From NCBI GenBank assembly GCA_003142295.1, contig PLLV01000135.1, positions 3,795 to 67,794 on the forward strand: a stretch of DNA of 64,000 nucleotides. The letters are read 5' to 3'. Below the pieces are notes generated by a model, which saw only the letters and a program-made list of their open reading frames with translations, ran no database searches and was not told the origin of the DNA. Origin of the DNA: Syntrophaceae bacterium. GTDB lineage: Bacteria > Desulfobacterota > Syntrophia > Syntrophales > UBA2185. Shown here piece after piece: positions 28,988-64,000 of this stretch (position 1 is its first letter; each line of letters opens with the position of its first letter). The position numbers and the translations under genes are program-made.

Positions 28988-29023
28988 AAGTTTCTCCGCA
29001 AATGGATAGCCATTTTTTTATTA

Positions 29024-29063
29024 TTGACACTTGTATGGCAGTGCTGTATATGTAACACATATA
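29024..29063 (+). promoter_or_regulatory. Promoter with overlapping 17-bp palindrome (likely RelB operator)
   Basis: TTGACA (29024-29029), 17 nt, TATATG. The palindrome TATATGT-aac-ACATATA at 29047-29063 overlaps the -10. Confidence 0.55.
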
Positions 29064-29087
29064 ATACACAGATGGTGGTGATCGCAA

Positions 29088-47248: not shown

Positions 47249-48304
47249 TTGATTGTAAAGGTCAACAGCAGCGCCGTTGTCGGTGTAGATTCGTATCCAG
47301 TCGATGTGGAAGTAGATATATCACCGGGACTTCCTCAATTTTTAACGGTGGGACTTCCTGATGTCGCAGTCAAGGAAAGCAAAGACAGAATCAAGGCAGC
47401 CATAAAAAATTCCGGCTACAAATTCCCCAAGAACCACGTTACCGTAAATCTCGCACCTGCCGACATTAAAAAAGAAGGAACCGGTTTCGATCTTCCCATT
47501 GCAGTAGGCATTTTGACAGGCGAAGGCTGTATTGAGTTAAAGGACACCCTCGATTACATGCTCATCGGAGAACTGTCCTTGGACGGAAGCATCAAGGGGG
47601 TTGATGGAGTCCTTTCCGCGGCCCTTCTGGCAAAGGAAATGGGGAAGAGGGGCATCATCGTGGCAAGGGAAAACGCCAACGAAGCCGCCATGGTGGAAGC
47701 TGTCGAAGTGATTCCTGTTGATACCCTTTCCGACGTCGTTGAATTTCTTAACGGCAGGAAGAAAATAATACCGCTAACGCTTGATATAGCTGATCTATTC
47801 AATAAGAGCTGCAATTATCCCTTCGATTTCAGCGAGATCCGCGGTCAGGAGCACGCAAAAAGGGCATTGGAAGTTGCCGCAGCGGGGGGTCATAATATAA
47901 TAATGATAGGTCCGCCGGGTTCAGGAAAGACGATGCTGGCACAGAGGCTCCCTACCATACTTCCCGGCCTTACTTTTCCTGAGGCAATTGATATTACGAA
48001 GATATTTTCTGTGACGGGACTGCTCAACAAGAGAGAGACTATTTTAGGGACAAGACCGTTTCGAGCTCCCCACCATACAATTTCAGATGCCGGACTCGTG
48101 GGGGGAGGACACACTCCCAGACCGGGAGAGATCAGCCTCGCCCATCACGGCGTCTTGTTCCTCGATGAGCTGCCGGAATTCAAGAGAAATGTCCTTGAGG
48201 CATTGAGACAACCTTTGGAGGATGGACATGTCACGATCACGAGGTCTTCCATTACTGCCACATATCCGGCAAGATTTATGCTTGTGGCGGCCATGAACCC
48301 CTGA
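47249..48304 (+). pseudogene. comM: comM/yifB (Mg-chelatase-like AAA+ competence protein), 3'-truncated by insertion
   Basis: 351 aa with a Lon-protease-like N-domain ([18 protein letters not shown]) and AAA+ Walker [10 protein letters not shown]. It ends at ...[13 protein letters not shown], whereas the family normally continues CPCG... for about 150 more residues. Confidence 0.75.
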
Positions 48305-49784
48305 AGCCGCGTTGCCCAGATGTCGTCAATTCGGAAGACGAAGGGAGGTAGCAGAGGTTGATGGTCACGTCTTCAGTACCTACAATAATTTTCTCAGTGA
48401 TGTTCTCCATGATTTTTCTCTTTTCATTATCAGTGAATTCGGGCCAGCGGGAATAAAGGTCTTTTGCTTGATTGAGGATCTGATCGCTTGAAAGGTACTG
48501 AATCTTCAAGAAATCAATCTCTCCTTGGAGTTCGGGAAGCTGATCCTCCATTTGTTGACGTCTCTCCTCCAAAGGCTTATATAAGCTTCCGAAGGTTTTG
48601 GAGTCTATAGTGTCATCAATGTAAGACCTGTATACCTTCTCCATCTCCCGCTCAATCTTCCGTTTCTCCTCTGTTAGGGCTTGCAAGAGATCCTCTTTTT
48701 CTTTAATTACATGATCGGCTTTGTTCAAGTAGCCGGTAATCTCGGATGATGAGAAGAAGAATGTCTTGAGCTGGTGATGGAAAATCTCTTCCAAATCGGC
48801 TGTGCCGATCTTGTTACGGCACTTGTAGCAGGTGTACTTGGGGGAATTGGAAGGTACATACATCTTGTTATCGCAACCACAAAAAACAAAACCGGTAAAG
48901 AGGTGGACGGCCTTGCGGCTCGGCCTTTTATTTTTCTTTTCCTGTTCGTCCAGAATATAGTTGCACGCCTCCCAAAGCTCCTGCGAAACAATAGGCTCCA
49001 CTTGACTGAGGACCCATTCTTCTTTAGGCTTTAAGACCCATTTCTTGTTTTCTCCGAGGCTTCTGGTATAGTTTGCTCGATAAATTCCTTTGGCTGTTGA
49101 GTCTCTTAAAAGTCTCTCGATAGTCGTATCGGAGAATTTCGCCCCTTTCCGGGTGCGATAGCCCTTTTCGTTGAGAAGTCGCGCTACTGTCTTTTTCCTG
49201 CGATGCTCCAAGAAAAGCTCATAGATCAACTTTCTTATCGGTGCTTCGGTCGGGTTGGGAATCAGCTTTCTATCGACCCATTGGTAACCTAAAGAGGCAT
49301 GACCGCCGAGGGGTTTACCGAGCTTAGCCCTTATAGGAACGGAGGCGGCAACCCTTTCGGAGATTTCTTCCCTCTCCCACTGGGCCATTGCGGCGATCAT
49401 GGTATAGAAGAGCCGTCCAGCAGGGGTTGAGGTATCAATCGATTCCTGAAGAGAGATCAGATCGGCGTTGTTTTCCCGGAATATATCGGCGAATTCCAGG
49501 AGTTCCCTGGTGTTTCTGGCCAATCGGGCAAGCTTCGAGAAGACAAGGCCGGTGATACGGCCACTTCTCACATCCTGGAGCATTCTTTGTGTTTCAGGAA
49601 GGTTGATAACAGACTTTCCGCTTATAGCCTCAAGATGGTAAACCTCTTTGATCTGCCAGCTTTTAGACTCGGCATAATAGCGGGCTCGTTTCTCATGGTG
49701 TTCCGGGCTCTCGCCTCTGGCTTGGTCTTCGGTGGAAACACGTATCCAGATGCCTACAGCTTTCGATTCGTTCTTTACCATCAT
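48276..49784 (-). CDS. Large serine recombinase (resolvase N-domain + recombinase domain + zinc ribbon + coiled coil)
   Basis: 502 aa. [13 protein letters not shown] holds the catalytic Ser, RLARN.REL is the resolvase core, and [21 protein letters not shown] is the zinc ribbon. The last 9 codons are antisense to comM codons. Confidence 0.9.
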
Positions 49785-49975
49785 AACAATCTCACCGAAA
49801 CGGTTGGAGGGATGTTCTCTTCGTGCATTAAATTATCCCGGTCTTTGAAAAAGTCAATCAATAATTGTCGGTTCAAGTACGGAGATTCCAAATGAGCTGA
49901 ATGGTCTTCAGAGGAGGGCAGCGGAGTATTTGTTCTCACTTAGGAACTCGAAAAGCAGCCAGTTGTCGTAAATAT

Positions 49976-50401
49976 TTAATCGAACATCTCCTTGACGACC
50001 CAGTAAAGAAAATCACTGGGACTCATGATTCGCGTCTTGTCATAATGGGCCATAGGGAAATGCTTCCTGTTGCCCGTTATGAGGTAGTGGGCCTTAGCCT
50101 CCAATGCGCATTCCAAGAATTTATTGTCTTCAGGATCGATCTTGATAACATTGATCCGCGTTGATGGTGATACCCAAGAAGATTTCCGCTTAATGGATAG
50201 CAAAGCTTTTCTGACGTTTGCCTGATCCAGGCTTTGAAATTTCTCCCGTGACAAAACGCCTTTGTATTCGGCAAAAATCTCCTCGGTCACGCACAGTTGG
50301 ATGTGGCCTTCCAAGACGAGAGACAGTACCAGCGCCGGGGCGCTGCCCTCTTTAAGCAGAGCCGAGATGATGACGTTGGTGTCGAGGACTACCCTGATCA
50401 C
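49976..50401 (-). CDS. PIN-domain toxin (TIGR00305-like)
   Basis: 141 aa. VVLDTNVIISAL... carries the first acidic residue, followed by ...LITGNRKHF. The gene overlaps the antitoxin gene by 4 nt. Confidence 0.8.
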   Translation of the reverse strand: MIRVVLDTNVIISALLKEGSAPALVLSLVLEGHIQLCVTEEIFAEYKGVLSREKFQSLDQANVRKALLSIKRKSSWVSPSTRINVIKIDPEDNKFLECALEAKAHYLITGNRKHFPMAHYDKTRIMSPSDFLYWVVKEMFD

Positions 50402-50694
50402 TTGGCCCTGCCTCCTTTCTTTCTGGTTTTCCGAAAGGCTTTGATTTCCGCTTCAATCTCGGTATCGCGCAGACGGTCAAGACCCGCTTCCTTTGCGCTG
50501 ATCTGGATCTTGGTCATCAGCTTGGGCTGCTTAACGATGTTTTTGAGATAATCCTTGACACCGAGAATCACCACCTTGGGTTTGCCTCGGCGACTGACCA
50601 AAAAGCGGACGTTTTTCTTTTCCGCCTCATTCATAATTCTGCCAAATTGAGTCCTGGCAGATAGGGCGTTGATTAAAGTTGTCATTGGTTGCAC
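50398..50694 (-). CDS. Phd/YefM-type antitoxin
   Basis: 98 aa. ALSARTQFGRIMNEAEKKNVRFLVSRRGKPKVVILGVKDY fits a Phd/YefM N-domain and the gene lies upstream of the PIN gene. Confidence 0.75.
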   Translation of the reverse strand: MQPMTTLINALSARTQFGRIMNEAEKKNVRFLVSRRGKPKVVILGVKDYLKNIVKQPKLMTKIQISAKEAGLDRLRDTEIEAEIKAFRKTRKKGGRAK

Positions 50695-50869
50695 CTCCTT
50701 TCTAAACTCATTAGTTCACTAATTACTTCGTATTTTTTTATTATAGGGAGATGCCACTATTTGTCAAACTATATTTTCTTCACAATGGATATCAGCGAGG
50801 TAAACATAAAGATAAAAGGAGATGTTTAAGACATCTCCTTTTTGTTGGTTATTGTTTGGGTGCACAATT

Positions 50870-51853
50870 CTAAGCATCCCAATTTCTCAGTTGTTCTCCT
50901 GGCAGCGCGATCACCTTCCCGCCGATTCTTTCCATCTCCAGGCTGTTCTCCCAGCTTTTTTCGCTCTGGGCGGCCCTTGTAACGGCGTTGGCGATGCCGT
51001 ACTGGTCGGCCTCCGGCTCCGCCCCGAAGGCCATGAGGATGTTCGCCTTCTGGTCTTCGCTGAGGCGGTAGTGCTCCACCACGTTGCTGATCACCCGCTG
51101 GGGATTTCTGACCTTGATCTCCGTCGATTCCCGGAGCGCCTGAACGATCTCACCGAACCTGCCGAAAAGCTCCCTGATCGACCGCCGTATGGAGAGATAG
51201 ACCGTCTCGTCAAATCCGTTATCGCCGTTTCCGAGATGGATCTGCCGCGCGGCGAATTCCTCCATGACCATGCCGTTGGTGCACTGGACCCGGAACGTCC
51301 GGGGCTCGATCCTCAGCGCGCGATGCCCGGTCTCGGAATTGACCAAGAGCAATCCTCCGGTGATCAGATCGTCTTTATGCCTGACGAAATCCCGGAGCCT
51401 GTCGCTTTTCACCTTGAGGTTCATTTCCGTCTCGGAAAGATAGCAGCCTTCCACCTCCGCCTCGTGGGCCTGGAGTTCGTTCAACGAGCAGTAGAGTACG
51501 TCCAGGTGATCGATGATCCGGTATCTCTCGCTGAGAAATGCCCGGACGGAATCGCCGAGGCCCCGAATGAAGACGTCTTTGGATGAACGCTTGAACCATG
51601 TATTCACGTTCTCGATCAGAAGCTCCGGCGCTTCGTTCTCCATCTTTGAATAATATCTCACCGGGATCTCCAACCGCTCGGCAATCTGATTGTGGCAGGG
51701 CCGGGTGATTGAAAAATGGTTATCGTTCCCATTCAAGTGAAGTCTCGTGCGACTTTCATTCAGGATCATCTCCAATCGAGATGATTCGATCTTTTGATCC
51801 CACTTGAGCGGCTTTTGCCTTTCCAGCTCTTCCATTAGCTCTTGCAGTTTCAT
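50870..51853 (-). CDS. DUF932-like protein (phage/plasmid-associated)
   Basis: 327 aa. The overall pattern (...RAFLSERYRIIDH...LLLVNSETGHRALRIEPRTFRVQCTNGMV...) matches my recollection of the DUF932/TIGR03299 family found on integrative elements. Confidence 0.55.
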   Translation of the reverse strand: MKLQELMEELERQKPLKWDQKIESSRLEMILNESRTRLHLNGNDNHFSITRPCHNQIAERLEIPVRYYSKMENEAPELLIENVNTWFKRSSKDVFIRGLGDSVRAFLSERYRIIDHLDVLYCSLNELQAHEAEVEGCYLSETEMNLKVKSDRLRDFVRHKDDLITGGLLLVNSETGHRALRIEPRTFRVQCTNGMVMEEFAARQIHLGNGDNGFDETVYLSIRRSIRELFGRFGEIVQALRESTEIKVRNPQRVISNVVEHYRLSEDQKANILMAFGAEPEADQYGIANAVTRAAQSEKSWENSLEMERIGGKVIALPGEQLRNWDA

Positions 51854-52116
51854 GGTTGTCCTCCTTCGTTAGATTTTTCTGGTTTAAAGGGTAAATCCAG
51901 TTGTTCCAGATTCGAGGATGGCAATTCTCTAACCTCAATTTGGCCCTCTTCATTGATTGAGATCTTCAGACCTCCGGTGACCATTTCACCCTTCCCTTCG
52001 CTCAAGAGGGAAGCCCTGATCTCATCTTCAAGGGTCTCCAGGGTTTCGACCATCCGCCTCCGGAAGACCAGGCTTTTGACCCTTTGATAAAGCTTCCTCC
52101 GCCTCACGCCCATCAC
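51850..52116 (-). CDS. Hypothetical small protein
   Basis: 88-aa ORF (alternative start MVETLETL at 52053) that overlaps the start of the DUF932 gene by 4 nt. Confidence 0.4.
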   Translation of the reverse strand: MMGVRRRKLYQRVKSLVFRRRMVETLETLEDEIRASLLSEGKGEMVTGGLKISINEEGQIEVRELPSSNLEQLDLPFKPEKSNEGGQP

Positions 52117-52234
52117 CTCCGTTTAGTGCATGCTCCAAGATTCGATTGACCAAAACAGTCATTCGTATTCCCTCCGCCTTGGCCACCTTATAGAGCAACG
52201 GAATCAAATCTTCTTTTATTTTTGGACTGTACAT
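52028..52234 (-). CDS. Hypothetical small protein, possible RHH-type DNA binder
   Basis: 68 aa with a strong RBS (AGGAGGGGC 6 nt upstream). The N-terminal pattern YSPKIKEDLIPLLYKVAKAEGIRMTVLVNRILEHAL resembles a ribbon-helix-helix. Confidence 0.5.
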   Translation of the reverse strand: MYSPKIKEDLIPLLYKVAKAEGIRMTVLVNRILEHALNGGDGREAEEALSKGQKPGLPEADGRNPGDP

Positions 52235-52256
52235 ATGCCCCTCCTTTTTTGTCCCT

Positions 52257-52433
52257 TCAGTCTATAGGGACCTTCTGGTTAAGGTTATTCCAGCTGGTTC
52301 TTCTGATTTTAATCCCTCCGCACTTTTTGCTGTTTTTGTGACAGCACTTCCGACAGTGCTCCAAGCCCCATACTTGTACGTTCCAGCATTCGGAACTCAG
52401 GTTTTTGGAATGAATGATCCTTGTCTTCATCAT
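52257..52433 (-). CDS. Cys-rich micro-protein (58 aa; below the ORF-track cutoff)
   Basis: Hand translation gives MMKTRIIHSKNLSSECWNVQVWGLEHCRKCCHKNSKKCGGIKIRRTSWNNLNQKVPID, with AAGGAG 6 nt upstream. Confidence 0.4.
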   Translation of the reverse strand: MMKTRIIHSKNLSSECWNVQVWGLEHCRKCCHKNSKKCGGIKIRRTSWNNLNQKVPID

Positions 52434-52442
52434 TGCTCCTTT

Positions 52443-52607
52443 TCACAAATAGCAGTTGTGGCAGATCACTTGGCCGTCTGCCAAGAACACAGCGGTATTC
52501 GACAGTGGATGAAACGGCGTCCATCGATGACCGCAATCAAGCAAAAACTTCTTGCCTTTCAACAAGCGCAAAAAAAAGCTGTGCGCCTCATAAACTACTT
52601 CTTTCAT
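52443..52607 (-). CDS. Zinc-ribbon-like micro-protein (54 aa; below the ORF-track cutoff)
   Basis: Hand translation gives MKEVVYEAHSFFLRLLKGKKFLLDCGHRWTPFHPLSNTAVFLADGQVICHNCYL (CxH...CxxC), with AAGGGGGT upstream. Confidence 0.4.
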   Translation of the reverse strand: MKEVVYEAHSFFLRLLKGKKFLLDCGHRWTPFHPLSNTAVFLADGQVICHNCYL

Positions 52608-52995
52608 TTTCTCTTACCCCCTTTCTTTTGGATTTTAAATGTGCTGATTGATCCAGCATACTTCTGGTATCTTCAGCATACGGGGGGTTGAATAAATGAT
52701 AAGAAGGGTGATTTTGCCAGTCCAGGCAATGCCTCGAAATATTGTGAAAAGAATGGGCCTATTTCTGAGACGGAAAGAGAGAATGGATTGGGTGAGGATT
52801 TAAAGACGCAACAAAGATTGGCTGCCTATGGCGGATTTGACCTCACGGTCAATATCAAATCGGGTTCTGAATGGGATTCTTGGCTTCACCTACAACTGTT
52901 TGGTGGTATGCTTTCATCATGACCGATGATTACGGATCGAAAGAGCGTAACGTATAAATCAGCCGACGACAAAGGAGGTCGGTTGGGTTTTTTTG

Positions 52996-54207
52996 TTAGA
53001 TAGCCCCCAGAATCAACTTTGACCATTCGGGATGCCCGTTGTATATCAAATGTCGAATGATTCTCTCTGCGAGACAAGAATATTCTTTAAATCTATTTCT
53101 CACTCTGTCTATTTTTATCCCATTATTCTTACAAAGAGAACCACTGTGCGCTACTTGACACCTATATTTATAGATGTCTCTAAGCTGACAATAGATGATG
53201 TGTCGATCATCACCATCTTTCCCGATAAGCCAACTGCCACGAAGACGGAAAGACTGTGAGAGTTGATCGTTGTTCACGTTGTCGTCGAGAAGCGCCATTT
53301 CTAATGCGATACCCAGATCAAGAATCTTATCTTCTATTTGATCCCGTCGCTTCGCTTGAGATAGGCGAGACAAAGCTCTAGTCATTCTTGGCTTATCATC
53401 AAGTGGCAATGCACCAAAGGCATCCACAAGGCTATGAATTTCACTTACGCTATCTTCAGAAAGTTTCAATGACCTGCGGCCAATAATGTCATATATTGGT
53501 GAGCCACCCCCCGACCCACCAAACATGCCTATTGGCATATCTGATAAAGCATATGATGTTGAATAATAGGGGATGCACGAAACACCATCAATAGCATTAA
53601 GCAAAAGAGCGATCTCACTCAAACGCTGAGACGAATTCCAGAACTCTTCGTCCCTCATCTTCATCTGTTGAAAAGTTTCATCTCCTTTAACAGCCTTAGT
53701 TGTTTGGCATGTGCAGGTAATTGCTGCTTTAGGTTTGGGTGTTGGCTGCGGGAAATATTGAACGTCACGCTTCAGATAGTGCTGCTTATCCCGAGAATTA
53801 GGCATTTTGTGAACAGATTCAATCCGATATTCATTTCCTAAATCGAGCGTTCTTTCTACCTCTATTCCAAGCACCCACAAGGTATTTATTACTGAAACTT
53901 TATCTGAGTCTAGGAAAGTGTTTAGATTTTCTTCCGCAATATCTTGCCCATATTCGTGAATCGCCCATAAGAACCACATTGCGAGAGTCTTAATTTCGAA
54001 TCTAGTGGCATTGTTCCCATTAGAAATCATGTAGCCATCTAAAGCTTGAACTCTCGGATCTTCTCCGAGTGCTGCCAGCACTTGGGTGCCTACCTCTTCA
54101 TTTTCAATTAGTCTTGAATAACCTAAATAGAGTTGAGTTAGCCTGTCATCGACAGAAGCAACTTCGTCTATCTCTGGTCTTGGTATTTGAAGACGCCCTA
54201 TTTCCAT
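52996..54207 (-). CDS. HEPN-domain protein (Apea-like architecture), putative RNase toxin
   Basis: 403 aa. The C-terminal helical domain carries LRDIYKYRCQVAHSG (Rx4H, the Y..R...AHG style seen in HEPN families). The roughly 270-aa N-terminal domain is of unknown type. The gene is AT-rich. Confidence 0.6.
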   Translation of the reverse strand: MEIGRLQIPRPEIDEVASVDDRLTQLYLGYSRLIENEEVGTQVLAALGEDPRVQALDGYMISNGNNATRFEIKTLAMWFLWAIHEYGQDIAEENLNTFLDSDKVSVINTLWVLGIEVERTLDLGNEYRIESVHKMPNSRDKQHYLKRDVQYFPQPTPKPKAAITCTCQTTKAVKGDETFQQMKMRDEEFWNSSQRLSEIALLLNAIDGVSCIPYYSTSYALSDMPIGMFGGSGGGSPIYDIIGRRSLKLSEDSVSEIHSLVDAFGALPLDDKPRMTRALSRLSQAKRRDQIEDKILDLGIALEMALLDDNVNNDQLSQSFRLRGSWLIGKDGDDRHIIYCQLRDIYKYRCQVAHSGSLCKNNGIKIDRVRNRFKEYSCLAERIIRHLIYNGHPEWSKLILGAI

Positions 54208-54283
54208 TATTCACCATTTAACATGGAGCTAAGCGGCTGACAAAGTTGCACAGCGGATTTGTCTGTCCGACTTGAGCTGTAGG

Positions 54284-54973
54284 TTATGATTCTTCCTCAA
54301 TTGGATTTTTAATGAAATCTAAAAATAACTTACCAATTTCCGTTGTGCGATGGCTAATAACGCCACTATCCGATCTTTGAGTAGTAATAAGTGATCTTGA
54401 AGATAAATCCTTCCAAATGAAATCGAAGAAGCCTTTTTCTCTCAATTCGGAAAATTCGCTTCCGAGAGGGTCAATTCTGCTTATACAATTGTCAGCAGAA
54501 TTTCCCTTTTGCGTCTCACTATATGTTACTTGAACCTTGAAATATTCAATTGTTTTTAAATGCCAAACAGACAAAGTATCTATAAAAGACAAGAATAATT
54601 GTTGGAGAGATTCTTCCGGTGGATTAGGTAGTGCTGAATTTAGAATTGCACTTTTTAATGCCTCACGTTTTTCACGATTAATTGTTTTTATTGCAATCCG
54701 GGTAGCTTCTATTGCCGTGTCGATGAATCCATCGTTTTCCTGAAGCGATTCAAGCACTACTCCCATTTTTTCTTCAAGAGTTCCAAGTCCCATTCCAATC
54801 TCTTCCATCCATTGATTGCGTCTTTTCTCAAGAGATGGTGTAACGATTAACTTCAATAATTCTCCTGCAGCCGCACCAGCATAAGGAATGGCTCCTAGGC
54901 CAGCACGCGTCATTGCATGAATAACATCGCCAGCATCGAGCTCAGGTGGTTTGTATTTTTCTGACTTATTCAT
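54284..54973 (-). CDS. Hypothetical protein (229 aa), upstream partner of the HEPN gene
   Basis: Same strand, with a 76-nt gap to the HEPN gene and promoter cassette copy B upstream. It is helical and has no catalytic motif I recognise. Confidence 0.55.
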   Translation of the reverse strand: MNKSEKYKPPELDAGDVIHAMTRAGLGAIPYAGAAAGELLKLIVTPSLEKRRNQWMEEIGMGLGTLEEKMGVVLESLQENDGFIDTAIEATRIAIKTINREKREALKSAILNSALPNPPEESLQQLFLSFIDTLSVWHLKTIEYFKVQVTYSETQKGNSADNCISRIDPLGSEFSELREKGFFDFIWKDLSSRSLITTQRSDSGVISHRTTEIGKLFLDFIKNPIEEES

Positions 54974-55076
54974 TTTTCACTAAAACAATTAATACGGAAT
55001 GAGATATTGTTTTACCATCTGGAGGACGCTACTATATTAATAAAGCTTAAAAACGAACAATTCTTACGTACCTGCA

Positions 55077-55166
55077 ATATCATAATTTTGAAGAAATTAA
55101 CATCAATGATAACTGATTGAAATCCTGAATCTTCGTCGATCCAGTAGTTTTACTGACTTCAGGAAG
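55077..55166 (-). promoter_or_regulatory. Copy B of the recurrent promoter cassette (upstream of the 229-aa/HEPN pair)
   Basis: Minus-strand reading: CTTCCTGAAG...TCGACGAAGAT, hairpin, ATCATTGATG, TTGATG-16 nt-TATGAT. Confidence 0.55.
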
Positions 55167-55189
55167 ATGTTAATAAAATGAACCCATTC

Positions 55190-55223
55190 TTCAAAATAAG
55201 AAAAGGTGGGAGTTGTTCCCACC
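55190..55223 (-). terminator. Intrinsic terminator of the HU gene
   Basis: On the minus strand, GGTGGGA-acaac-TCCCACC is followed by TTTTCTTATTTTG, 48 nt after the hup stop. Confidence 0.7.
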
Positions 55224-55270
55224 CTCTCTTGTGTAATAGTGTGACTATTTGCAGTTTATTATAACTATAA

Positions 55271-55540
55271 TTATTTCACAGAATCTTTCAATGCCTTTCC
55301 AGCTGTAAACTTGGGGACCTTTTTGGCTGCAATCTTGATCGGTTTGCCGGTCTGAGGATTTCTTCCATTCCGTGCTGATCTCTTTGCAACCTTGAACGTC
55401 CCAAACCCGACGAGAGTCACCGTTTCTCCTTTCTTCAGCGACTTCTTAATTGTCCCAAGGACGGCATCTACGGCCTTTGCTGCTTCTGCCTTAGTACATG
55501 TAGATTTTGCGACCACATTGATGAGATCTCCTTTGTTCAT
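55271..55540 (-). CDS. hup: HU-family DNA-binding protein
   Basis: 89 aa. MNKGDLI...[42 protein letters not shown] is canonical HU. Confidence 0.95.
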
Positions 55541-55890
55541 ACTTTCATCCTCCTTTTTTTTAAATTAGTTTTGATCCGCAACAGGCGGCGGTAACGCCCT
55601 CTTTGGTGATGGCAAGTAATTGTATATGGAACACTCCGACCTTATTACTGGTTTCCGGATTATTAGAAAAGGTATTATACGAAATTTGGAAAAACAATAA
55701 TAATTGTAGTTATTCGTAAAACGTTTCCGACTCATTCTACCCTCCTTAATGATGATCCCAAAATATGCCAGAATCATTACATAAAAACTGGATCGGTTTT
55801 AGGGGGCAGGTCAATATGCGGCATGACCAATATGCGACAGGTCAGACTGTCCTCTGATATTATCGTCATTTTATTGACAAAATTTCAGTA

Positions 55891-56259
55891 TTATATGGCG
55901 TTTATTTTTTTAATCAATTCGCCAATAATAACAGGCTTGGCAATAAAGTTGCGTCCGCCGACAACACCACCACTTATTTTAATTTCTTCCTGTTTGATGA
56001 TGGCTGTTACAAATATAATGGGAATGGAGCTGGTAGCGGGATCCTCCGACAATTTCTCGGCTACAAGGGTGCCAGCCATATCGGGCATCATGATATCGAG
56101 CAGGATGAGATCCGGCTTCTGTGTCTTTGCTAGCCGTATCCCATCGTCTCCCCGCGTAGCTGTCATCACATGAAAGGTACTTTTCAACTCAAGCGATTTC
56201 TTTAAGGTGCGGCAAAAATATTCTTCATCATCTATAATAAGTATTCTTTTTGCGGTCAT
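55891..56259 (-). CDS. Single-domain response regulator (CheY-like receiver)
   Basis: 122 aa with ILIIDDE...PDLILLDIMMPDM...KP. Confidence 0.85.
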   Translation of the reverse strand: MTAKRILIIDDEEYFCRTLKKSLELKSTFHVMTATRGDDGIRLAKTQKPDLILLDIMMPDMAGTLVAEKLSEDPATSSIPIIFVTAIIKQEEIKISGGVVGGRNFIAKPVIIGELIKKINAI

Positions 56260-56278
56260 ATCATGATCTCCTTTATCA

Positions 56279-56647
56279 TTACCCCAGAAGCTGAATCATT
56301 TTCACCAAGACGCATGTTTCGATGTACTCGAGATTGAGGGGTTTGGTAATGTAGTCATCAGCGCCCAATTGAATTGCTCTTTTGGCCAGTTCTTCGTCGA
56401 TGACGGCTGTGACCATAATAACCACGATTTTGGAATCTATTTTTTTGATCTCCTTCAGGGTATCGATGCCGCCCATACCCGGCATGAGGATGTCGAGTAA
56501 TACGATATGAGGCCTAATATCTTTTACCTTTTGAATGGCCTGCAGGCCGCCCGTAGCAGTGTATACCTCATATTCTTTCGCTGCCAGGTACTTCTGCAAC
56601 AGTCTCACGATGTGGATTTCATCATCGACAACAAGTATTCTTTCCAT
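56279..56647 (-). CDS. Single-domain response regulator (CheY-like receiver)
   Basis: MERILVVDDE...PHIVLLDILMPGMGG...ITKP. The start is taken at the ATG at 56647, after the kinase stop. Confidence 0.85.
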   Translation of the reverse strand: MERILVVDDEIHIVRLLQKYLAAKEYEVYTATGGLQAIQKVKDIRPHIVLLDILMPGMGGIDTLKEIKKIDSKIVVIMVTAVIDEELAKRAIQLGADDYITKPLNLEYIETCVLVKMIQLLG

Positions 56648-56678
56648 AGGGATAACTCCCATCTCATTAGTTATTTTT

Positions 56679-59627
56679 TTAAATATCCGTTTGAAGGGGG
56701 AACCTGACATAAAAAGAAGCGCCCCCCCACTCATTGTTCTCCGCCCAGATCATGCCTCCGTGATCATGGACGATGCCGTACGATATGGAAAGCCCCAGTC
56801 CCGTTCCTTTTCCCTGTCCCTTGGTGGTAAAAAACGGATCAAAGATTTTCGACATATGTTCACTCTTGATACCCGTGCCGGTGTCGGCGATTGTTATTTT
56901 CAGTTGATCGTGATCCCCGAACACCGTTTCCTTCTCCGTTGTTATGCGCAACACTTTTTTCTCTTTCCCCTCCATGGCGGCCAAGGCGTTTGTAATCAGG
57001 TTCAGAATAACCTGCTCTATCTTTTCTCTGTCCATGGCGATTGCCGGCAAATCCGACTGGTATTGCACCTCTATTTCTACTCCCTCTATCTTCAACTGCG
57101 TTGCGTATAAAGTCAGAACATGGGCGATGACACCGTTGATATCGGCCGTGATCATCTTTTTTTCGGAGATGCGGGAAAACTGTTTGAGATTTTCCGCAAT
57201 GATGACGATGCGGCTGATTTGGGCCATGCAGACCTCTAATTCTTCCAGCACTTCGGGTGAGGGGTTTTCCATAGTCTGCAATATCTGCAATTCCAAGGAG
57301 ATGATACTCACGGGATTGAGGATCTCGTGGGCAACCCCGGCGGATAATCGACCCATGGACGCGAGCTTTTCCGACTGGAGCAACTGGTCTCTTGCATTTT
57401 GCAGGTCTCTTTCCACCTGATTCTTCTCGGTTACATCCTGCACGATCCCGACTATCCTGACGATCTTGCCGGTGTCATCAATGATGGGTTCCAGCAGTTG
57501 ACGGACGTCACACACCGCGCCGTCACACCGGACGATGCGATGTTCTATTTCGCTCGTTGCTCCTTCATGCATGGCTTTTTCAACGGCTTTTTTTACCATC
57601 TCTCTGTCCTCGGGAAAAACCAGCTCGGAGAAGGCTTCATAGGTTCCGTCAAACATCTGAGGCGTGGCCGCCCCTACGATCCGGGAAATCTCGTCGGAGC
57701 AGTACATGTCATCGCTTTCGATATTCCATTCCCAGTTTCCGATGTGGGCAATTCGCTGGGCCTCCGCCAAACTCAGATTGCTTTTCTTGAGAGATTCTTC
57801 TATCCGCTTCCGGTCCGTGAGATCGATGATGGCACCCCTCAATCCCACGGGCTTCCCTTCGCGGATGACGACGCTTGGAAAGATCAGAAACGGAAAGGTG
57901 CTGCCGTCTTTTCGAAGCCCCGTGTACTCAGATGGACCCTTCCATTCCCCATTCAACAGCCTCTGAATGTTCCCTGCCAGTTTTTCCTGATCATCTGGTA
58001 TAATCATCTGAAATCCATTCAGACTTTTTTCGAAATCGGGTTGCGTATATCCGAAGGTTTCGAAGATGGCGGGATTTGCGGAAGTGACATTGCCCTGAAT
58101 GTCGGTTTCGAACAACGAAATCGGCAGGAAATCGACCAGCTCCCTGTATTTTTTTTCGCTCTCTGCCAGCGTCTCCTCTATCCGTTTGCGTTCAGTGATG
58201 TCCCTTACAACGGCTGTTACACCAAGAATTTTACCCTCCCGAATAATTGGCGTACCAGTTACTTCCCCGATTTTTCTTGTCCCATCCTTTGCAATAAATT
58301 CATAAACCGCGCCCTTGACCTCCACACCTGAAAGGACTTGTATGACATCAGAGACTGCTCTCGTAAGGGATTCTAAAGTCAGGATATTTAAATCTTGGAT
58401 AGGCCTGTTGATCACTTCTTCGACTTTGTAGCCCAATTGTCTCTCGACACTTGGAGTTATACTTGAAATATTAAAATTACGATCGATTGTAAAGATGCCA
58501 TCAGAAGTGCTTTCAAAGGCTAACAGATATTTTTCTTCGCTCTCCCGCAGCGCCTCCTCCGCCCGCTTGCGCGCAGTGATGTCCCTGGCCACCGCCTGAA
58601 AACCGATGTTTTTATCATCCTTTGACAACAATTGAGCATTTTGCCCGATCCATTTTGTTGACCCATCCTGGACGATGATGGGGAACTCAAAGTATGTGCT
58701 CGGGATTTGCTCATCGTATTGCTTTTTGTAAAAAGCTTCGATCTCATCATGAAAGTCGGGTCGTACAAAGATAAGATAATGTTTCCCCACGATTTCCGAC
58801 CTGGGCCATCCCATGATGCGCTCGGCGACGGGATTCGCATAGGTGAAATAGCCCTTGAGATTAATTGAATAAATAATATCGCTGCTGTTTTCGACGAAGA
58901 GCCGGTATTTCTTTTCGCTCTCGATTAAAGCCTTCTCCGTCTGCTTGTGCTCACCCGTCTGGGTTTCGAGATCCTGGTTGGCGGTCTCAAGTTGCGCGGT
59001 TCTCCCAACAATTCCTGCCTCCAGATCTTCATTGAGTCTGAAGATATCCTTTTCGATCCCCTCTCGTTCGGCGTTTTCTTCCTGCAGCTGATCGTTGATC
59101 GCTTCCAGTTTTTCATTGGTCTCTTTCAGTGCCATTTCAGCCCGGCGTGAGTCCCGGATGAAAACGAAAAATACCCCCATGTCCATGGACAATGCGAGCA
59201 ATAGAATCAGACAGGTCTTTTTCAACAGTGGCCGCAGAGACTGATAAATTTCAAGTTTTCCTACAACAACCCCCGCATGCATTATGTCGGAGGATCGCAT
59301 GATAAGCGGTGATTCCAGATTGTCCGAGCTTTCAGCGACGATTTCATTTTTTGTGTTCACAACGCGCCGCGTTTCTGCATGTTCTGTACTCGGACGCTTG
59401 GAAAGATATTCCATGAGTCTGACGCGTTCGAATTGCCAGTACTTGGGATTTGTAACGACAATTTGCGTCATTATTCGTGAATTGATTTCCGCTTCACTTT
59501 CGAGGGTTCCTATCATATTTTGATAGGAAAGAAGAAAATAGCCGGTGAGAAGGAGGATCACGATGGTTCCGATCACCATTGCGAGAAGCCGAATAATAAA
59601 TTTCGATATGTTTTTGTTGTTTGGCAT
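56679..59627 (-). CDS. Multi-PAS sensor histidine kinase
   Basis: 982 aa with an N-terminal TM sensor region, a coiled coil, at least 4 PAS/PAC units (repeated VARDITARKRAEEAL-type junctions), the HisKA H-box SAGVAHEILNP and HATPase N/G boxes (NLITNA, DTGTGI, GKGTGLGLS). Confidence 0.9.
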   Translation of the reverse strand: MPNNKNISKFIIRLLAMVIGTIVILLLTGYFLLSYQNMIGTLESEAEINSRIMTQIVVTNPKYWQFERVRLMEYLSKRPSTEHAETRRVVNTKNEIVAESSDNLESPLIMRSSDIMHAGVVVGKLEIYQSLRPLLKKTCLILLLALSMDMGVFFVFIRDSRRAEMALKETNEKLEAINDQLQEENAEREGIEKDIFRLNEDLEAGIVGRTAQLETANQDLETQTGEHKQTEKALIESEKKYRLFVENSSDIIYSINLKGYFTYANPVAERIMGWPRSEIVGKHYLIFVRPDFHDEIEAFYKKQYDEQIPSTYFEFPIIVQDGSTKWIGQNAQLLSKDDKNIGFQAVARDITARKRAEEALRESEEKYLLAFESTSDGIFTIDRNFNISSITPSVERQLGYKVEEVINRPIQDLNILTLESLTRAVSDVIQVLSGVEVKGAVYEFIAKDGTRKIGEVTGTPIIREGKILGVTAVVRDITERKRIEETLAESEKKYRELVDFLPISLFETDIQGNVTSANPAIFETFGYTQPDFEKSLNGFQMIIPDDQEKLAGNIQRLLNGEWKGPSEYTGLRKDGSTFPFLIFPSVVIREGKPVGLRGAIIDLTDRKRIEESLKKSNLSLAEAQRIAHIGNWEWNIESDDMYCSDEISRIVGAATPQMFDGTYEAFSELVFPEDREMVKKAVEKAMHEGATSEIEHRIVRCDGAVCDVRQLLEPIIDDTGKIVRIVGIVQDVTEKNQVERDLQNARDQLLQSEKLASMGRLSAGVAHEILNPVSIISLELQILQTMENPSPEVLEELEVCMAQISRIVIIAENLKQFSRISEKKMITADINGVIAHVLTLYATQLKIEGVEIEVQYQSDLPAIAMDREKIEQVILNLITNALAAMEGKEKKVLRITTEKETVFGDHDQLKITIADTGTGIKSEHMSKIFDPFFTTKGQGKGTGLGLSISYGIVHDHGGMIWAENNEWGGASFYVRFPLQTDI

Positions 59628-59807
59628 ATTTGTTCAGTTTGCCGGTCTGCCAAAACATTCTCGTTCTTAATTATTTTCACCAGTACTTTTCAAAGCCGGA
59701 AAAAATGAATTAATGTTTTTTATAGTGTAAGGTTAGGATAGGAGCCAGGGGAAGGCAGGTCAATATAGAATAATATGTGACGAAATATATAGATAAAATC
59801 TATATTA

Positions 59808-60674
59808 CTATAGAGACAGAAGACAGGAACGAAGATTGGGTTCCCTCTTTTTTAAACCAAGTTTTTTTCTGATGCTATTCCGGTGTGTGTTCACGGTCCC
59901 TACGGTAACACACAGCAGTTTAGCGATATTTTTTGACGTCATGCCTCCTTTGACCATACTGGCCACTCGGATCTCCGTAGGGGTTAACTTCTTGTAGTTG
60001 GATGATATGTTGTTTAAAAAGGGGGAAACAATGTCTTTAAGATTCGATTCGAGAACGTTTAAATAGCATTTACCTCTTTCATCCAGATTATAGTTTTGCA
60101 ACTCCCTGATATAGGGGAGCACGAGTTCATTGATGTTTTGCTGCAGCTTTGCTTCCAGGTTCTTCAGATCTTCCCCCCGGCGTTTCAAGAAAACCCGAAG
60201 GGCGGTATTGGCTTCCTCAAGTTGCGCCGATCGCCGAGTCAGCTCTTCCTCCATTTGTTTAAGGGTGTTCTGGGCATGTTTGCGTTCGGTTATATCGTGA
60301 TTGATGCTGAGAACCAATTTTTCACCACGGACATCGATGCGTTCCGCTGAATAGATGCCCATCCGGATATCGCCGGATTTCGTCCGGTATTCGACCCTCT
60401 CATTATAAATAGCGCCTTTTGTTTTCAGAGACTGACAGATTCTTTCATAATTTTCCCGACTCAGAATGTTTAGTTCCGGAATGCTTCGCCCGACGATTTC
60501 TTCACGGGAGTAACCCGTAAAACGGATGAATCGGTGATTGACATCAAGAAACACATGGTCCTCAAACCTGTTGATAGCCATGAGGGACGGGCTCATAAAA
60601 AATATTCTTGACAAGAGTATATTTATTTTGTCCCGTTCCAATATTTCTATTTGTAATGCCTCACTGCTCTTCAT
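59808..60674 (-). CDS. PAS-domain LuxR/GerE-family transcriptional regulator
   Basis: 288 aa with an N-terminal PAS domain, a coiled coil and the C-terminal HTH LTPTEIRVASMVKGGMTSKNIAKLLCVTVGTVNTHRNSIRKKLGL. Confidence 0.85.
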   Translation of the reverse strand: MKSSEALQIEILERDKINILLSRIFFMSPSLMAINRFEDHVFLDVNHRFIRFTGYSREEIVGRSIPELNILSRENYERICQSLKTKGAIYNERVEYRTKSGDIRMGIYSAERIDVRGEKLVLSINHDITERKHAQNTLKQMEEELTRRSAQLEEANTALRVFLKRRGEDLKNLEAKLQQNINELVLPYIRELQNYNLDERGKCYLNVLESNLKDIVSPFLNNISSNYKKLTPTEIRVASMVKGGMTSKNIAKLLCVTVGTVNTHRNSIRKKLGLKKREPNLRSCLLSL

Positions 60675-61281: not shown

Positions 61282-62304
61282 TCAACGACAGCGTCCCTCG
61301 CCTTTAGCGATGTCTAACGCTTTGCATTTTCCCAACTCACACGCCTTTTGAGCATCATGGCAGCCCAGCTTGTTGTTGCCCTGAAGAAAATAAGCAATCC
61401 CCCTGTTGCTGTAGGCTTCGGCTAAATCAGGTTGTAAGCGGATAGCTTCATTATAATCTTCGATGGCTCGCTGATACTGGTCAAGTTTACCGTATGCATT
61501 CCCTCTGTTGTAGTATGCCATGTAATCTTTCGTCTGTAGGCGGATAGCTTTATTATAGTCTTCTATGGCACGCTGATACTGGCCAAGGCGAGTGTAAATA
61601 GCACCCCTGTTGCAGTAAGCCTCGGCATAATCCGGCTTCAGGTGGATGACTTCATTAAAGTCTTCGATGGCCCGCTGATGCTGGCCAAGGCCATAGTAAA
61701 CAACCCCTCGGTTGTAATAGGCCTCGGCATAATCCGGTTTCAAGCGGATTGCTTCATTAAAGACTTCAATGGCGCGTTGATACTGGCCGAGGTCATAGTA
61801 GGCCTTACCCCGGTTTTTATAGGCCTCAGCCAAGTCCGTCTTTAGGCGATTGGCTTCATTATAATCTGCGATTGCGCGCTGCTTTTGTCCAAGCTTATCG
61901 TAAGCATATCCCCGGTTGATGTAGGCATTGGCATAATTCGGTTTCAGCCGGATAGCTTCATTATAGTCCTCAATGGCACGTTGATACTGCCCAAGGGCAG
62001 CGTAAGTATATCCCCGGTTGCTATAGGCCATGGCATCATTCGGTTTCAGCCGGATGACCTGATTATAGTCTTCAATGGCACGTTGATATTGGCCGAGGTT
62101 AAAGTAACCATTCCCCCGGTTGCCGTAGGCGTCGGCATAATCTGGTTGCAGTTTAATGGCATTGTTCAAATATTCGATAGCCTTTTCTGGATCGTTATAT
62201 TTTAATTCGTCAGCCTTATTAAACCATTCGACTGCCGTTTCACACATTGCCGGGGTACAAAGAAATGTTAAAACAAGAAAGATGGGAAAAATAATTTTGC
62301 GCAT
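61282..62304 (-). CDS. Secreted TPR-repeat protein (9 near-identical 34-aa repeats)
   Basis: 340 aa with a signal peptide. The unit QYQRAIEDYNEAIRLKPDYAEAY.NRG occurs 9 times, followed by a Cys-rich C-terminus (CHDAQKACELGKC...GRC). Confidence 0.85.
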   Translation of the reverse strand: MRKIIFPIFLVLTFLCTPAMCETAVEWFNKADELKYNDPEKAIEYLNNAIKLQPDYADAYGNRGNGYFNLGQYQRAIEDYNQVIRLKPNDAMAYSNRGYTYAALGQYQRAIEDYNEAIRLKPNYANAYINRGYAYDKLGQKQRAIADYNEANRLKTDLAEAYKNRGKAYYDLGQYQRAIEVFNEAIRLKPDYAEAYYNRGVVYYGLGQHQRAIEDFNEVIHLKPDYAEAYCNRGAIYTRLGQYQRAIEDYNKAIRLQTKDYMAYYNRGNAYGKLDQYQRAIEDYNEAIRLQPDLAEAYSNRGIAYFLQGNNKLGCHDAQKACELGKCKALDIAKGEGRCR

Positions 62305-62574: not shown

Positions 62575-63354
62575 TTAGACGCCGAATTGTTTCTCTATGA
62601 TTCTCCTCCACCCAAGACTTCTCATTTCATCAAAGGATAATTCACTAATACGATGACCCTCATACGTAAACACTTCATCTGGTGTAACCTCTCTATCATG
62701 AAACAGATTTAGGTATTCACGCCTGACAAATATTGCATTATAATTCACATTTGCTAATAGGCTATACTGCTTACGAATTGCAAGCTCTGTCATGGACGAG
62801 ATGCTTGTTCCAGTGTAATCTGTAATACCCCACATGGACGAAATGCTTGTTCCACTAATACCCCGCACAATTGGAGAGCCTGGTTTGTTTATACGTTTTA
62901 CTCCCGGTTTATCACGTATATTAATCTCAATTATGACAACTTTGGGCTGATACTTATCTAAAGATTGCCATACATGATAGTCATCCCCATCAACATCAAT
63001 TGACAGCAGATCGAATTGTTTTGGAATAGGGGTTAGACTTAAAACGTTATCGAGTTTATTTTCCCCTTCAGGCCTTACAAAAGCATTGATACAAATAGTG
63101 TCATACGCTTTCATATTTTCGCGCAAAAGATTATATTTTAATGGATCTGCTTCAATCATAACACCACGGTAAGTTTGCTGCGATATGAAGTAATATGTAT
63201 TACTTTCATGCTTGCCATCCCATGCTCCAAGTTCTACGCACCAACCTGTCTTATCAGGTATTTTTGACAAAACGAACGCCAATATTCCATCTTCACCATG
63301 TTGAGAAAAGAATGTTTTACGGTGGCTGAGTAACTTTTCAACTGTGTCTTTCAT
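62575..63354 (-). CDS. FkbM-family methyltransferase-like protein
   Basis: 259 aa. FSQHGEDGIL...VELGAWDG..SNT....Q.YRGVMIEADP and LLSIDVDGDD match the FkbM-type pattern. The gene contains an in-frame tandem duplication. Confidence 0.6.
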   Translation of the reverse strand: MKDTVEKLLSHRKTFFSQHGEDGILAFVLSKIPDKTGWCVELGAWDGKHESNTYYFISQQTYRGVMIEADPLKYNLLRENMKAYDTICINAFVRPEGENKLDNVLSLTPIPKQFDLLSIDVDGDDYHVWQSLDKYQPKVVIIEINIRDKPGVKRINKPGSPIVRGISGTSISSMWGITDYTGTSISSMTELAIRKQYSLLANVNYNAIFVRREYLNLFHDREVTPDEVFTYEGHRISELSFDEMRSLGWRRIIEKQFGV

Positions 63355-63476
63355 GGGGTGTCACGTTTTCCATTTGTAAAATTAGGAAACATGAAATTCT
63401 TTTTGTTGCTCCTCACCACTTGAAATGATGGATTAACTTGGCAAACAGGCATGACGAATTGGAAACATTGTACCCA

Positions 63477-64000
63477 TTAGTAAGCTTTTTGTTTTATTGC
63501 TAATAGCTTTACAGTGGCGCTATTACTCTGCAATGGTCCGACTTTCTTTTCTTTTAAAAATCTAATATCGAATGCATCCCTTAATTGCGCTTTGATAAAA
63601 CCATGTGGTGGTAAATCAAGATAATTTCCCCCATGACTACCTATTGTCTCTATAAATAGATAACCTCCTATTTTGAGGGACTTTAGAAAAAATCCTATTA
63701 ACCTACAATGAAAGAAATGAACATTTATTATTGCTCCCAGAGATTCATCTTCAAATGGCCATGGGTCATTTATTAAATCTAATTGCATTGTAGTAAGTTG
63801 ATTAAAATAGTTGGGTTTTTCTAATGACAAGCTAATAGAGGATTTAATATATTCCAAGGCATCATTATCGATGTCAACACATAAAACGGGTACCCCGAAA
63901 GAGGCTATACAAGCGGCGTTTCTTCCATATCCGCATGCTACATCAACAATTGCACCATTTGAATTCAGAGCAATTTCTTCTGCAAACTTTGCTAAAATTT
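63477..64000 (-). CDS. Class I SAM-dependent methyltransferase, 5' end beyond the window
   Basis: The minus-strand frame stays open upstream of the listed 126-aa ORF to the window edge. It encodes ...AKFAEEIALNSNGAIVDVACGYGRNAACIASFGVPVLCVDIDNDALEYI (SAM motif I, DVACGYGR). Confidence 0.7.
   Translation of the reverse strand, partial: ILAKFAEEIALNSNGAIVDVACGYGRNAACIASFGVPVLCVDIDNDALEYIKSSISLSLEKPNYFNQLTTMQLDLINDPWPFEDESLGAIINVHFFHCRLIGFFLKSLKIGGYLFIETIGSHGGNYLDLPPHGFIKAQLRDAFDIRFLKEKKVGPLQSNSATVKLLAIKQKAY

Follow-up and report, generated by a model that had tools for sequence, protein, structure and literature searches.

We analyzed a 64,000-nucleotide stretch of a Syntrophaceae bacterium genome (GenBank assembly GCA_003142295.1, contig PLLV01000135.1, positions 3,795 to 67,794), hereafter the window, in which comM, described as the gene for the branch-migration helicase of natural transformation, is interrupted by an island carrying the gene for a large serine recombinase (LSR). 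The comM open reading frame (ORF) ends at Pro351 in the ORF list, and the LSR gene converges on it from the opposite strand with an overlap of 29 nt (48276–48304). A first-pass annotation, made from the sequence alone, had read this arrangement as an LSR element in comM whose recombinase frame crosses the junction, and this part stood; its right boundary, its naming of a HEPN module among the cargo, and its idea of a reversible switch did not. The coordinates of all features are collected in Table 1.

Interruption of comM and the left junction

The comM fragment matched the Pfam families ChlI and Mg_chelatase, the latter over profile positions 1–158 of 207 only, and its TGA stop is created by the junction itself. 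A comM match was found in 36 of 40 relatives, and 32 of these matches covered residues 1–351 or 2–351. In 31 of the 32, the comM frame was open over 509–648 aa (intact comM in close relatives encodes 516–528 aa), and the sole exception was G035, in which a related element occupies the same codon of comM. Across the break, the four closest relatives (94–98% identical) read ...AAMNPCPCGYYTDQ... and ...AAMNPCPCGYYTDQTRACRC.... In G010, G004, and G005, which were fetched with wide flanks, the DNA to the left of window position 48303 and that of contig C8 of the window's own assembly from 29082 downward were contiguous at 88–97% identity. Judged by these orthologs, which do not naturally end at this residue, the truncation of comM is evidently not natural, and the claim that the gene is interrupted at codon 351 was borne out by the intact frames of the relatives, by the colinear flanks, and by the 3′ part of comM on C8.

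Logan contigs from three peat-metagenome runs (two studies) bridged the left junction, attL, starting at 48262 with 42 letters on the comM side and entering the island. Because the junction at 48.3 kb, which had been flagged as a possible chimera, is present in contigs of three runs, it is not a product of this assembly, and it is no chimera of this genome's assembler. A contig of run X3, an independent peat sample, followed comM to 48300 and then entered unrelated sequence that was neither the island nor the comM of the relatives; it could represent another junction or another allele in the same habitat.

The comM half-site of attL ends in ...ATGAACCCC, and the element half-site (P′ arm) is AAGCCGCGTTGCC, which lies within the LSR codons G-Q-R-G-F. 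The crossover dinucleotide at 48302–48303 is the TG of the first Cys codon in the conserved ...AAMNP|CPCG... of comM. Read as ...AACCCC-TG-AAGCCGCGTTGCC, the attL of the window is canonical for the LSR family described below.

The recombinase and its junction-spanning reading frame

The 502-aa protein was predicted to be a large serine recombinase from its matches to the Pfam families Resolvase (PF00239; E = 3.1e-31; residues 12–154) and Recombinase (PF07508; E = 4.5e-21; above the cutoff). A match to Zn_ribbon_recom (PF13408) was weak, with 22.6 bits against a cutoff of 25.3, and inspection by eye revealed four Cys residues and a long charged helical stretch, a coiled-coil candidate, at residues ~355–430. 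The nucleophilic serine is presumably the residue placed by the family motif.

The best NCBIfam matches of the N-terminal 310 residues were CcrB and CcrC of the staphylococcal cassette chromosome, at 148 and 112 bits far below the equivalog cutoffs of 900, and a match to XisF was likewise below its cutoff (104 bits against 375). CcrB and CcrC target rlmH, unlike the present recombinase in comM. With scores far below the cutoffs and a different target, assignment of the LSR to CcrB/CcrC was rejected.

Residues 1 to ~494 of the LSR are encoded by the element, and the last eight codons (RGSWPPQA) together with the stop are antisense comM. The LSR frame crosses the junction, as first noted, and the C-terminus would therefore differ in a free circle. 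The stop is read from the complement of the final two bases of a ComM Phe codon and of the A that opens the next Met codon; it would arise with either Phe codon. A database protein of 644 aa, an LSR with helix-turn-helix (HTH) domains, was 73% identical to the LSR of the window up to QRGF/QRNF, where the two diverged and the 644-aa protein went on with IPALP.

An LSR family with attP inside the recombinase gene

We found 344 relatives of the LSR among species-representative genomes and classified the best 80 (60–79% identical), whose hosts belong to Armatimonadota, Acidobacteriota, Bacteroidota, Aminicenantes, Dehalococcoidia, candidate-phyla-radiation groups, Eubacteriaceae, and several proteobacterial classes. 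At 52 of these 80 loci, the LSR faces a convergent comM 5′ fragment that stops at residue 351. At 10 others, comM was not nearby and the LSR continued in frame as a single ORF of ~640 aa, ...QRN(F/L)-IPALPF...-HTH-HTH, the C-terminal portion of which is hereafter called the tail. The remaining loci included one with the tail in another frame, four running off a contig end, and 11 that were otherwise different. At two of the 80 loci (L111 and L117), a comM 3′ part lies downstream of the LSR on the same strand, an arrangement that the polarity of the TG crossover should forbid.

The most complete view of the integrated form came from G035, which belongs to the same order as the window genome and to another family, and which has, on a single contig of 646 kb, an LSR of 76% identity inserted at that same codon of comM. 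Its element is complete, measuring 30,753 bp from TG to TG, with TG at both junctions. The attP rebuilt from its attL and attR, which share the TG, has perfect 7-bp inverted arms (GCAACGC/GCGTTGC), each 5 bp from the TG, and in the rebuilt circle the LSR frame runs without a stop into a 151-aa ORF at the far end of the element, giving a protein of 645 aa. This 151-aa ORF contains two HTH_3 stretches (E = 3.4e-21).

Across the family, attP takes the form GGCAACGC-N5-TG-N5-GCGTTGCC and falls within the reading frame of the LSR, at codons Q-R-N-F/L | I-P-A-L-P. Both palindrome arms surround a central CA in the printed stretch of at least 8 of the 10 unsplit genes, and database proteins of 644 and 681 aa (three matches in all) have the tail fused to Resolvase and Recombinase domains. 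Ten further genomes have an integrated copy on a long contig, and in all of them the tail adjoined the comM 3′ fragment on the opposite strand, with tblastn identities of 44–54% and E values of 1e-28 to 1e-45 (1e-47 on a second contig of one genome). A comM C-terminal match occurred at 16 loci of these genomes, 11 with the tail and five being extra comM copies or other junctions. When attL and attR are rejoined across the TG of the first Cys codon, eight of the 10 further pairs restore M-N-P-C-x-C-G; in the remaining two (L043 and L055), the TG is at the same place and the comM 3′ part continues C-E-(E/D)-V, without CxCG. The sizes of complete elements in the relatives, taken from coordinates, were ~30–56 kb. 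A TTG in the att arm starts the orphaned tail in 10 of the 11 tails with a placeable junction, and separate translation from this codon is conceivable.

This comparison of sequences shows the LSR to be a member of a family that is predicted to use the same comM site across many phyla, and in which integration would split the LSR gene and remove a ~150-aa tail with two HTH domains. The att site, the crossover dinucleotide, the palindromic attP in the ORF, and the two predicted protein forms are shown by the same comparison. Because all canonical LSR domains stay with the part at attL, the tail is presumably accessory, with regulation or DNA binding as our guess at its function. It would be fused to the enzyme only in the free element, and the form of the enzyme would therefore report the state of the element. 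The short dyad-symmetric att sites with a 2-bp crossover also describe the copy in the window, where attL fits and attR fits only with 6 bp missing.

Within the order of the window genome, the LSR is rare: three of 301 genomes carry it, the copy in one being just 45% identical, and all 10 other members of the genus lack it. This sporadic distribution fits a recent horizontal acquisition.

Further arrangements were observed at comM. In G007 of the same genus (C3:308571–329240; L028 and L029), comM is split after residues 1–222 and its remainder lies ~19.8 kb away; the insert holds four IS110-family transposase ORFs (three of 494 aa), a PAS hybrid histidine kinase, and a pyruvate kinase, and no LSR. 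A complete extra comM lies inside the related element of L048 (2397–3923), directly upstream of the LSR, and a 530-codon open comM frame lies between attL and attR in G046 (C23, ~554.9–556.3 kb; L132); these extra copies may compensate for the split gene. In L124 (G045) and L133 (G049), the comM 3′ fragments adjoin a different arm, ...TACATGCACGGG-TG-..., with no HTH tail, and these sequences indicate that this TG of comM is the exchange point of at least one further element family. In G050 (C2; L045/L130), a unit of tail and comM 3′ part lies ~15 kb from attL, inverted relative to the comM 5′ fragment, which suggests a later inversion.

The right junction of the window copy

A search of the rest of the assembly for the C-terminal part of ComM, using PF13335 and PF01078, located it only on contig C8 (28612–29127, reverse strand), and no comM 3′ part was found within the window. 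The right end had been proposed to lie beyond the window or to be deleted, and the former proved correct. The comM-derived DNA on C8 occupies 28612–29082 (reverse strand), and inserted DNA starts at 29083. The element is accordingly bounded by the two halves of a conserved comM, of which the window contains the 5′ half and C8 the 3′ half.

The junction on C8, attR, reads ...GAAACCGCAGCCC-TG-CGGCTAT.... Its arm resembles the canonical arm only loosely (5 of 8 positions), but the spacing is canonical. The hexamer CCCTGC occurs once at attR, whereas precise exchange at the first TG, judged against the comM of relatives, predicts two in tandem. The right junction lacks 6 bp of comM, and the joined comM pieces give NPCG rather than NPCPCG, a motif retained in all four close relatives.

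The frame that continues the LSR at the right end on C8 is open over 96 codons and ends in a 54-aa ORF, which looks like a small HTH protein by eye and had no family match in any library searched (Pfam, PADLOC, and NCBIfam); no candidate recombination directionality factor was identified. The next ORF, an orphan of 381 aa, gave 77 pattern matches in the related-locus search, none of which was confirmed, and was present in none of the 300 other genomes of the order. None of the fetched attR and LSR loci matched the C8 right end by tblastx. A tail ORF of the IPALP type with two HTH_3 domains was not found beside the comM 3′ fragment here: the C8 frame is in phase but fails the profile built from the 11 tails (E = 0.076), and a tblastn search of these tails against the whole assembly returned no match, leaving the canonical tail unfound in it. 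A weak likeness of the C8 frame to the tail, seen by eye in the spacing F...IP..P.YLK, was dropped because the profile search did not support it.

It is extremely improbable that the comM 5′ and 3′ pieces come from different strains or that the junction is chimeric. The assembly comprises 250 contigs with 5% contamination, and the comM flank is deeper than the island, from which strains without the island probably coexist. Nevertheless, contigs of three runs bridge the junction, its architecture recurs at 52 independent loci, and the bin holds only one comM 5′ part and one 3′ part, each 95–97% identical to its half of the G010 gene.

We consider it likely that a mobile island was put into comM by its own LSR and that the attP of this family lies within the LSR gene, and we read the present copy as probably immobilized. 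In this model, the LSR of the island would integrate at ...AAMNP|CPCG... of comM by exchange at the TG of the first Cys codon, and the free form would encode an enzyme of ~640 aa with two C-terminal HTH_3 domains. Integration would cut the LSR gene, leaving the catalytic, recombinase, zinc-ribbon, and coiled-coil part at attL, where it would end eight codons into antisense comM, and the tail would become a separate ORF at attR, 30–56 kb away. The window copy would have been immobilized through a small deletion and replacement of the right end, with permanent loss of comM in the lineage. For this last step, we lean toward slippage loss of one hexamer combined with replacement or decay of the right end, which would have locked the island in. 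In this organism, comM is inactivated, and the loss is probably permanent.

Several points weigh against this account of the right end. The DNA at the end of C8 retains a P-arm-like GCGGTTTC at canonical spacing, and the C8 frame may encode a tail that has diverged yet still functions beside a functional attR. The missing 6 bp could be an error in the consensus or could have been absent before integration. With the bin at 93% completeness, a canonical tail could lie in the gap between C8 and C207, the contig of the window, for example in a tandem array. This gap is unclosed and both contig ends are graph branches; they share only 21-mers with the ends of C247 and C113, and no contig continues either. 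Finally, everything to the right of ~55.2 kb in the window depends on the assembler's path through a repeat containing an HU gene.

A real but minor possibility is that the island is composite, the LSR element ending in the gap with its canonical tail and an internal att junction, and the C8 end belonging to a second, recombinase-less or unrelated cassette at the same site. Neither the 300 other genomes searched in the order nor the compared loci and elements contain a relative of the C8 end with its 54-aa and 381-aa ORFs; the same TG is used, with another arm, by other element families; and both contigs end at graph branches. However, the 15.7 kb of island in the window contain no second att-like site, tblastn detected no tail anywhere in the bin, and the 6-bp shortfall would still be unexplained. 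Immobilization of a single island remains the reading that we prefer.

Extent and gene content of the island

The inserted DNA comprises at least C207:52098–68146 (16.05 kb) and C8:29083–30958 (1.88 kb), in total at least 17.9 kb. The right limit of 55270 given by the first-pass annotation is merely the start of the HU gene: the 15.7 kb after the junction had no syntenic counterpart in the four close relatives, except for the 403/229-aa gene pair and HU paralogs, and the island leaves the window 352 nt before contig C207 ends. An attP-pattern search gave two matches in the window, against 0.4 expected by chance; within the island only attL matched, and the other match, at position 391, is outside it. 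A repeat search returned only internal repeats of TPR and PAS sequences and short chance pairs.

Table 1. Features of the interrupted comM gene and the island in the window
Feature	Position	Strand	Remarks
comM 5′ fragment	47249–48304	+	351 aa; ChlI/Lon-like domain and first three quarters of the AAA+ Mg_chelatase domain
LSR, integrated tail-less form	48276–49784	-	502 aa
attL core	48290–48315	.	Same layout in G035 and 10 other attL/attR pairs
PIN_3 toxin	49976–50401	-	Pfam
PhdYeFM antitoxin	50398–50694	-	Pfam; 4-nt overlap with PIN_3
DUF932 protein	50870–51853	-	327 aa; Pfam
Four small ORFs	51850–52607	-	No family match
403-aa and 229-aa proteins	52996–54973	-	No match in Pfam, PADLOC, or NCBIfam
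HU gene repeat	55163–55680 (HU gene 55271–55540)	-	Near-identical copy at G000:C32:1100–1640
Two single-domain response regulators, 982-aa multi-PAS histidine kinase, PAS-LuxR regulator	55891–60674	-	Strain-specific
TPR lipoprotein	61282–62304	-	340 aa; 44% identical to a TPR gene of the G035 element; similar signal peptide
FkbM-type (weak match) and class-I methyltransferase-like ORFs	62575–64000	-	Run off the window

Among the small ORFs, the 68-aa ORF at 52028–52234 has a 61% identical counterpart in the G035 element. The 403/229-aa gene pair, which recurs in G010 (C40; 83% DNA identity), is the module that had been labeled HEPN. This label was rejected, as neither Pfam (E up to 0.01), PADLOC, nor NCBIfam supported it; an Rx4H motif in the 403-aa protein is visible by eye only. 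The response-regulator, histidine kinase, and PAS-LuxR genes are probably island cargo.

The cargo of the G035 element is quite unlike that of the window island. It includes SMODS (CD-NTase-type nucleotidyltransferase) and Cap15 domains, which we take to be a CBASS-type defense pair, a Swt1-like HEPN protein, toxin–antitoxin genes, a TraG/TrwB-like coupling protein, an ArdC-N domain, a CHC2 zinc-finger protein, and two more serine recombinases.

The HU repeat is ~0.5 kb long and ~97% identical, with long exact runs, to its copy on C32. The cassette, consisting of the gene, its upstream region, and a terminator hairpin, occurs twice in strain-specific DNA, and the C32 copy stands beside a 279-aa tyrosine recombinase. 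The first 2.85 kb of C32, which we considered as a possible native HU locus, was likewise absent from the four relatives.

The HU repeat raises the question of whether the element might be short, ~6.9 kb from 48.3 to 55.2 kb, the DNA from the HU gene onward having been misjoined or recombined in through the repeat shared with C32. The length and identity of the repeat would permit this, as would the strain-specific surroundings of the C32 copy with their tyrosine recombinase, and Logan contigs from the run that is probably the source are interrupted on either side of the repeat, where the depth is about double. We nevertheless regard a short element as clearly unlikely. Neither contig has a comM 3′ part after the HU gene, the TPR lipoprotein to the right of it has a homolog in the G035 element, and complete relatives measure 30–56 kb. 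Segment depth, a weak measure, was 8.3–11.5 to the right of the HU gene, nearer to the 9.8 of the left island part than to the 13.4–15.2 of the comM flank. The depths, the shared lipoprotein, and the absence of a comM 3′ part after the HU gene together argue that the genes to its right belong to the island. Run X1 did not cover the window beyond 62.2 kb and is uninformative there.

The TPR lipoprotein gene contains six 102-nt repeats at 61391–62200, 69–74% identical to the reference copy. Contigs from other samples skip 130 or 309 nt at these repeats, and the repeat number therefore varies between samples.

Relation to known systems

LSR islands in comM are a documented class, to which the finding as first written belongs. 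The first-pass annotation was right in calling comM a hotspot, yet this is a known one: in the accessible part of the survey by Durrant et al. (2022), the magnesium-chelatase/ATP-dependent-protease gene was the target of 12.4% of predicted site-specific LSRs (PMC10083194), and sr1WO of Wolbachia phage WO likewise targets a magnesium-chelatase/comM-type gene (PMC9203015). As in the window, the elements in these sources have an LSR at one end and are inserted in the comM coding sequence, with the gene halves flanking them. The parts of these two reports that we could consult make no mention of a recombinase gene spanning attP or of a detachable HTH tail, although their supplementary tables may list the family as tail-less ORFs. 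In the wider literature, covered in full text without subscription journals and supplements, we found no description of a serine recombinase gene spanning attP. The insertion event is thus ordinary; the integrase gene is unusual and apparently of an undescribed kind, and the present copy is without the right end that defines the family.

The nearest parallels to the split gene come from other integration systems. In SSV-type ("suicidal") tyrosine integrases of archaeal viruses and plasmids, as far as the consulted parts of the sources describe them, attP likewise lies in the integrase frame and the gene is split to the ends of the element (PMC7253208 and PMC8371274). The two systems differ in chemistry, tyrosine versus serine, and in the archaeal hosts of the SSV type, and the SSV split disrupts the catalytic protein as described there. 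In the present LSR family, by contrast with these accounts, no canonical LSR domain is lost from the part at attL, and what is cut off is the accessory HTH tail alone. In mycobacteriophage BPs and its relatives, the free and integrated forms reportedly differ in the C-termini of a protein, so that the element senses its own state. The portion of the BPs work available to us describes an integration-dependent immunity in which attP lies in a coding sequence, as in this family, but the gene that is cut encodes a repressor and not the recombinase (PMC4557955). A Riemerella phage tyrosine integrase is described, in the part of the report consulted, as losing 43 bp on insertion (PMC12169736).

Elements that are excised in development or on demand also bear on the window. 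In skin with SpoIVCA in sigK, SPbeta with SprA in spsM (PMC5499854), the A118-type prophage in comK (PMC3556126), and XisF with fdxN, an LSR element interrupts a host gene, as in the window, there rebuildable by excision. The first-pass annotation had extended this to a reversible switch. Conditional excision would then rebuild comM and gate transformation-type recombination, the part that skin, SPbeta, and the comK prophage play at sigK, spsM, and comK. In favor of such a switch, the core domains of the LSR are intact, attL is canonical, and in complete relatives both junctions are precise, eight of the 10 further pairs rebuilding NPCxCG across the TG. The right junction of the window copy is imprecise, however, unlike those of the developmentally excised elements: judged from the sequence, excision would leave a comM that is 6 nt short and lacks one Cys-Pro of NPCPCG. 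A search of the assembly for the canonical tail came back empty, and no gene could be put forward as a directionality factor; the scattered occurrence in three of the 301 genomes of the order, with none in the 10 other genus members, fits recent sporadic acquisition and not a conserved developmental device; and the intact comM carried by two related elements argues for compensation of a lasting loss. The switch hypothesis thus found no support, and we regard it as very unlikely.

Implications of a divided integrase gene

The topology of the LSR gene might constitute a device for directionality and state, a proposal that we put forward as speculative and rather doubtful. Under it, the full double-HTH enzyme would be made only from the free circle and would be needed for, or regulate, integration; the inserted form would be tail-less with a host-encoded eight-residue end; and the orphaned tail, translated from its TTG, would act as a repressor or directionality factor. 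The copy in the window would then represent the swapping of tails between elements and not decay.

The LSR family is common and crosses phyla, with 344 relatives in species-representative genomes, and every integrated copy shows the truncated gene only. Because integrated copies are truncated, surveys that mine inserted elements would record the tail-less form, with its eight host-encoded end residues, as the enzyme. Should activity, directionality, or expression depend on the double-HTH tail, such catalogs and the tools derived from them would overlook it. A serine integrase that loses a domain when it inserts would represent a bacterial, serine-chemistry counterpart of the archaeal SSV-type integrases, and the split integrase would offer a case in which the sensing of integration state by an element can be tested directly.

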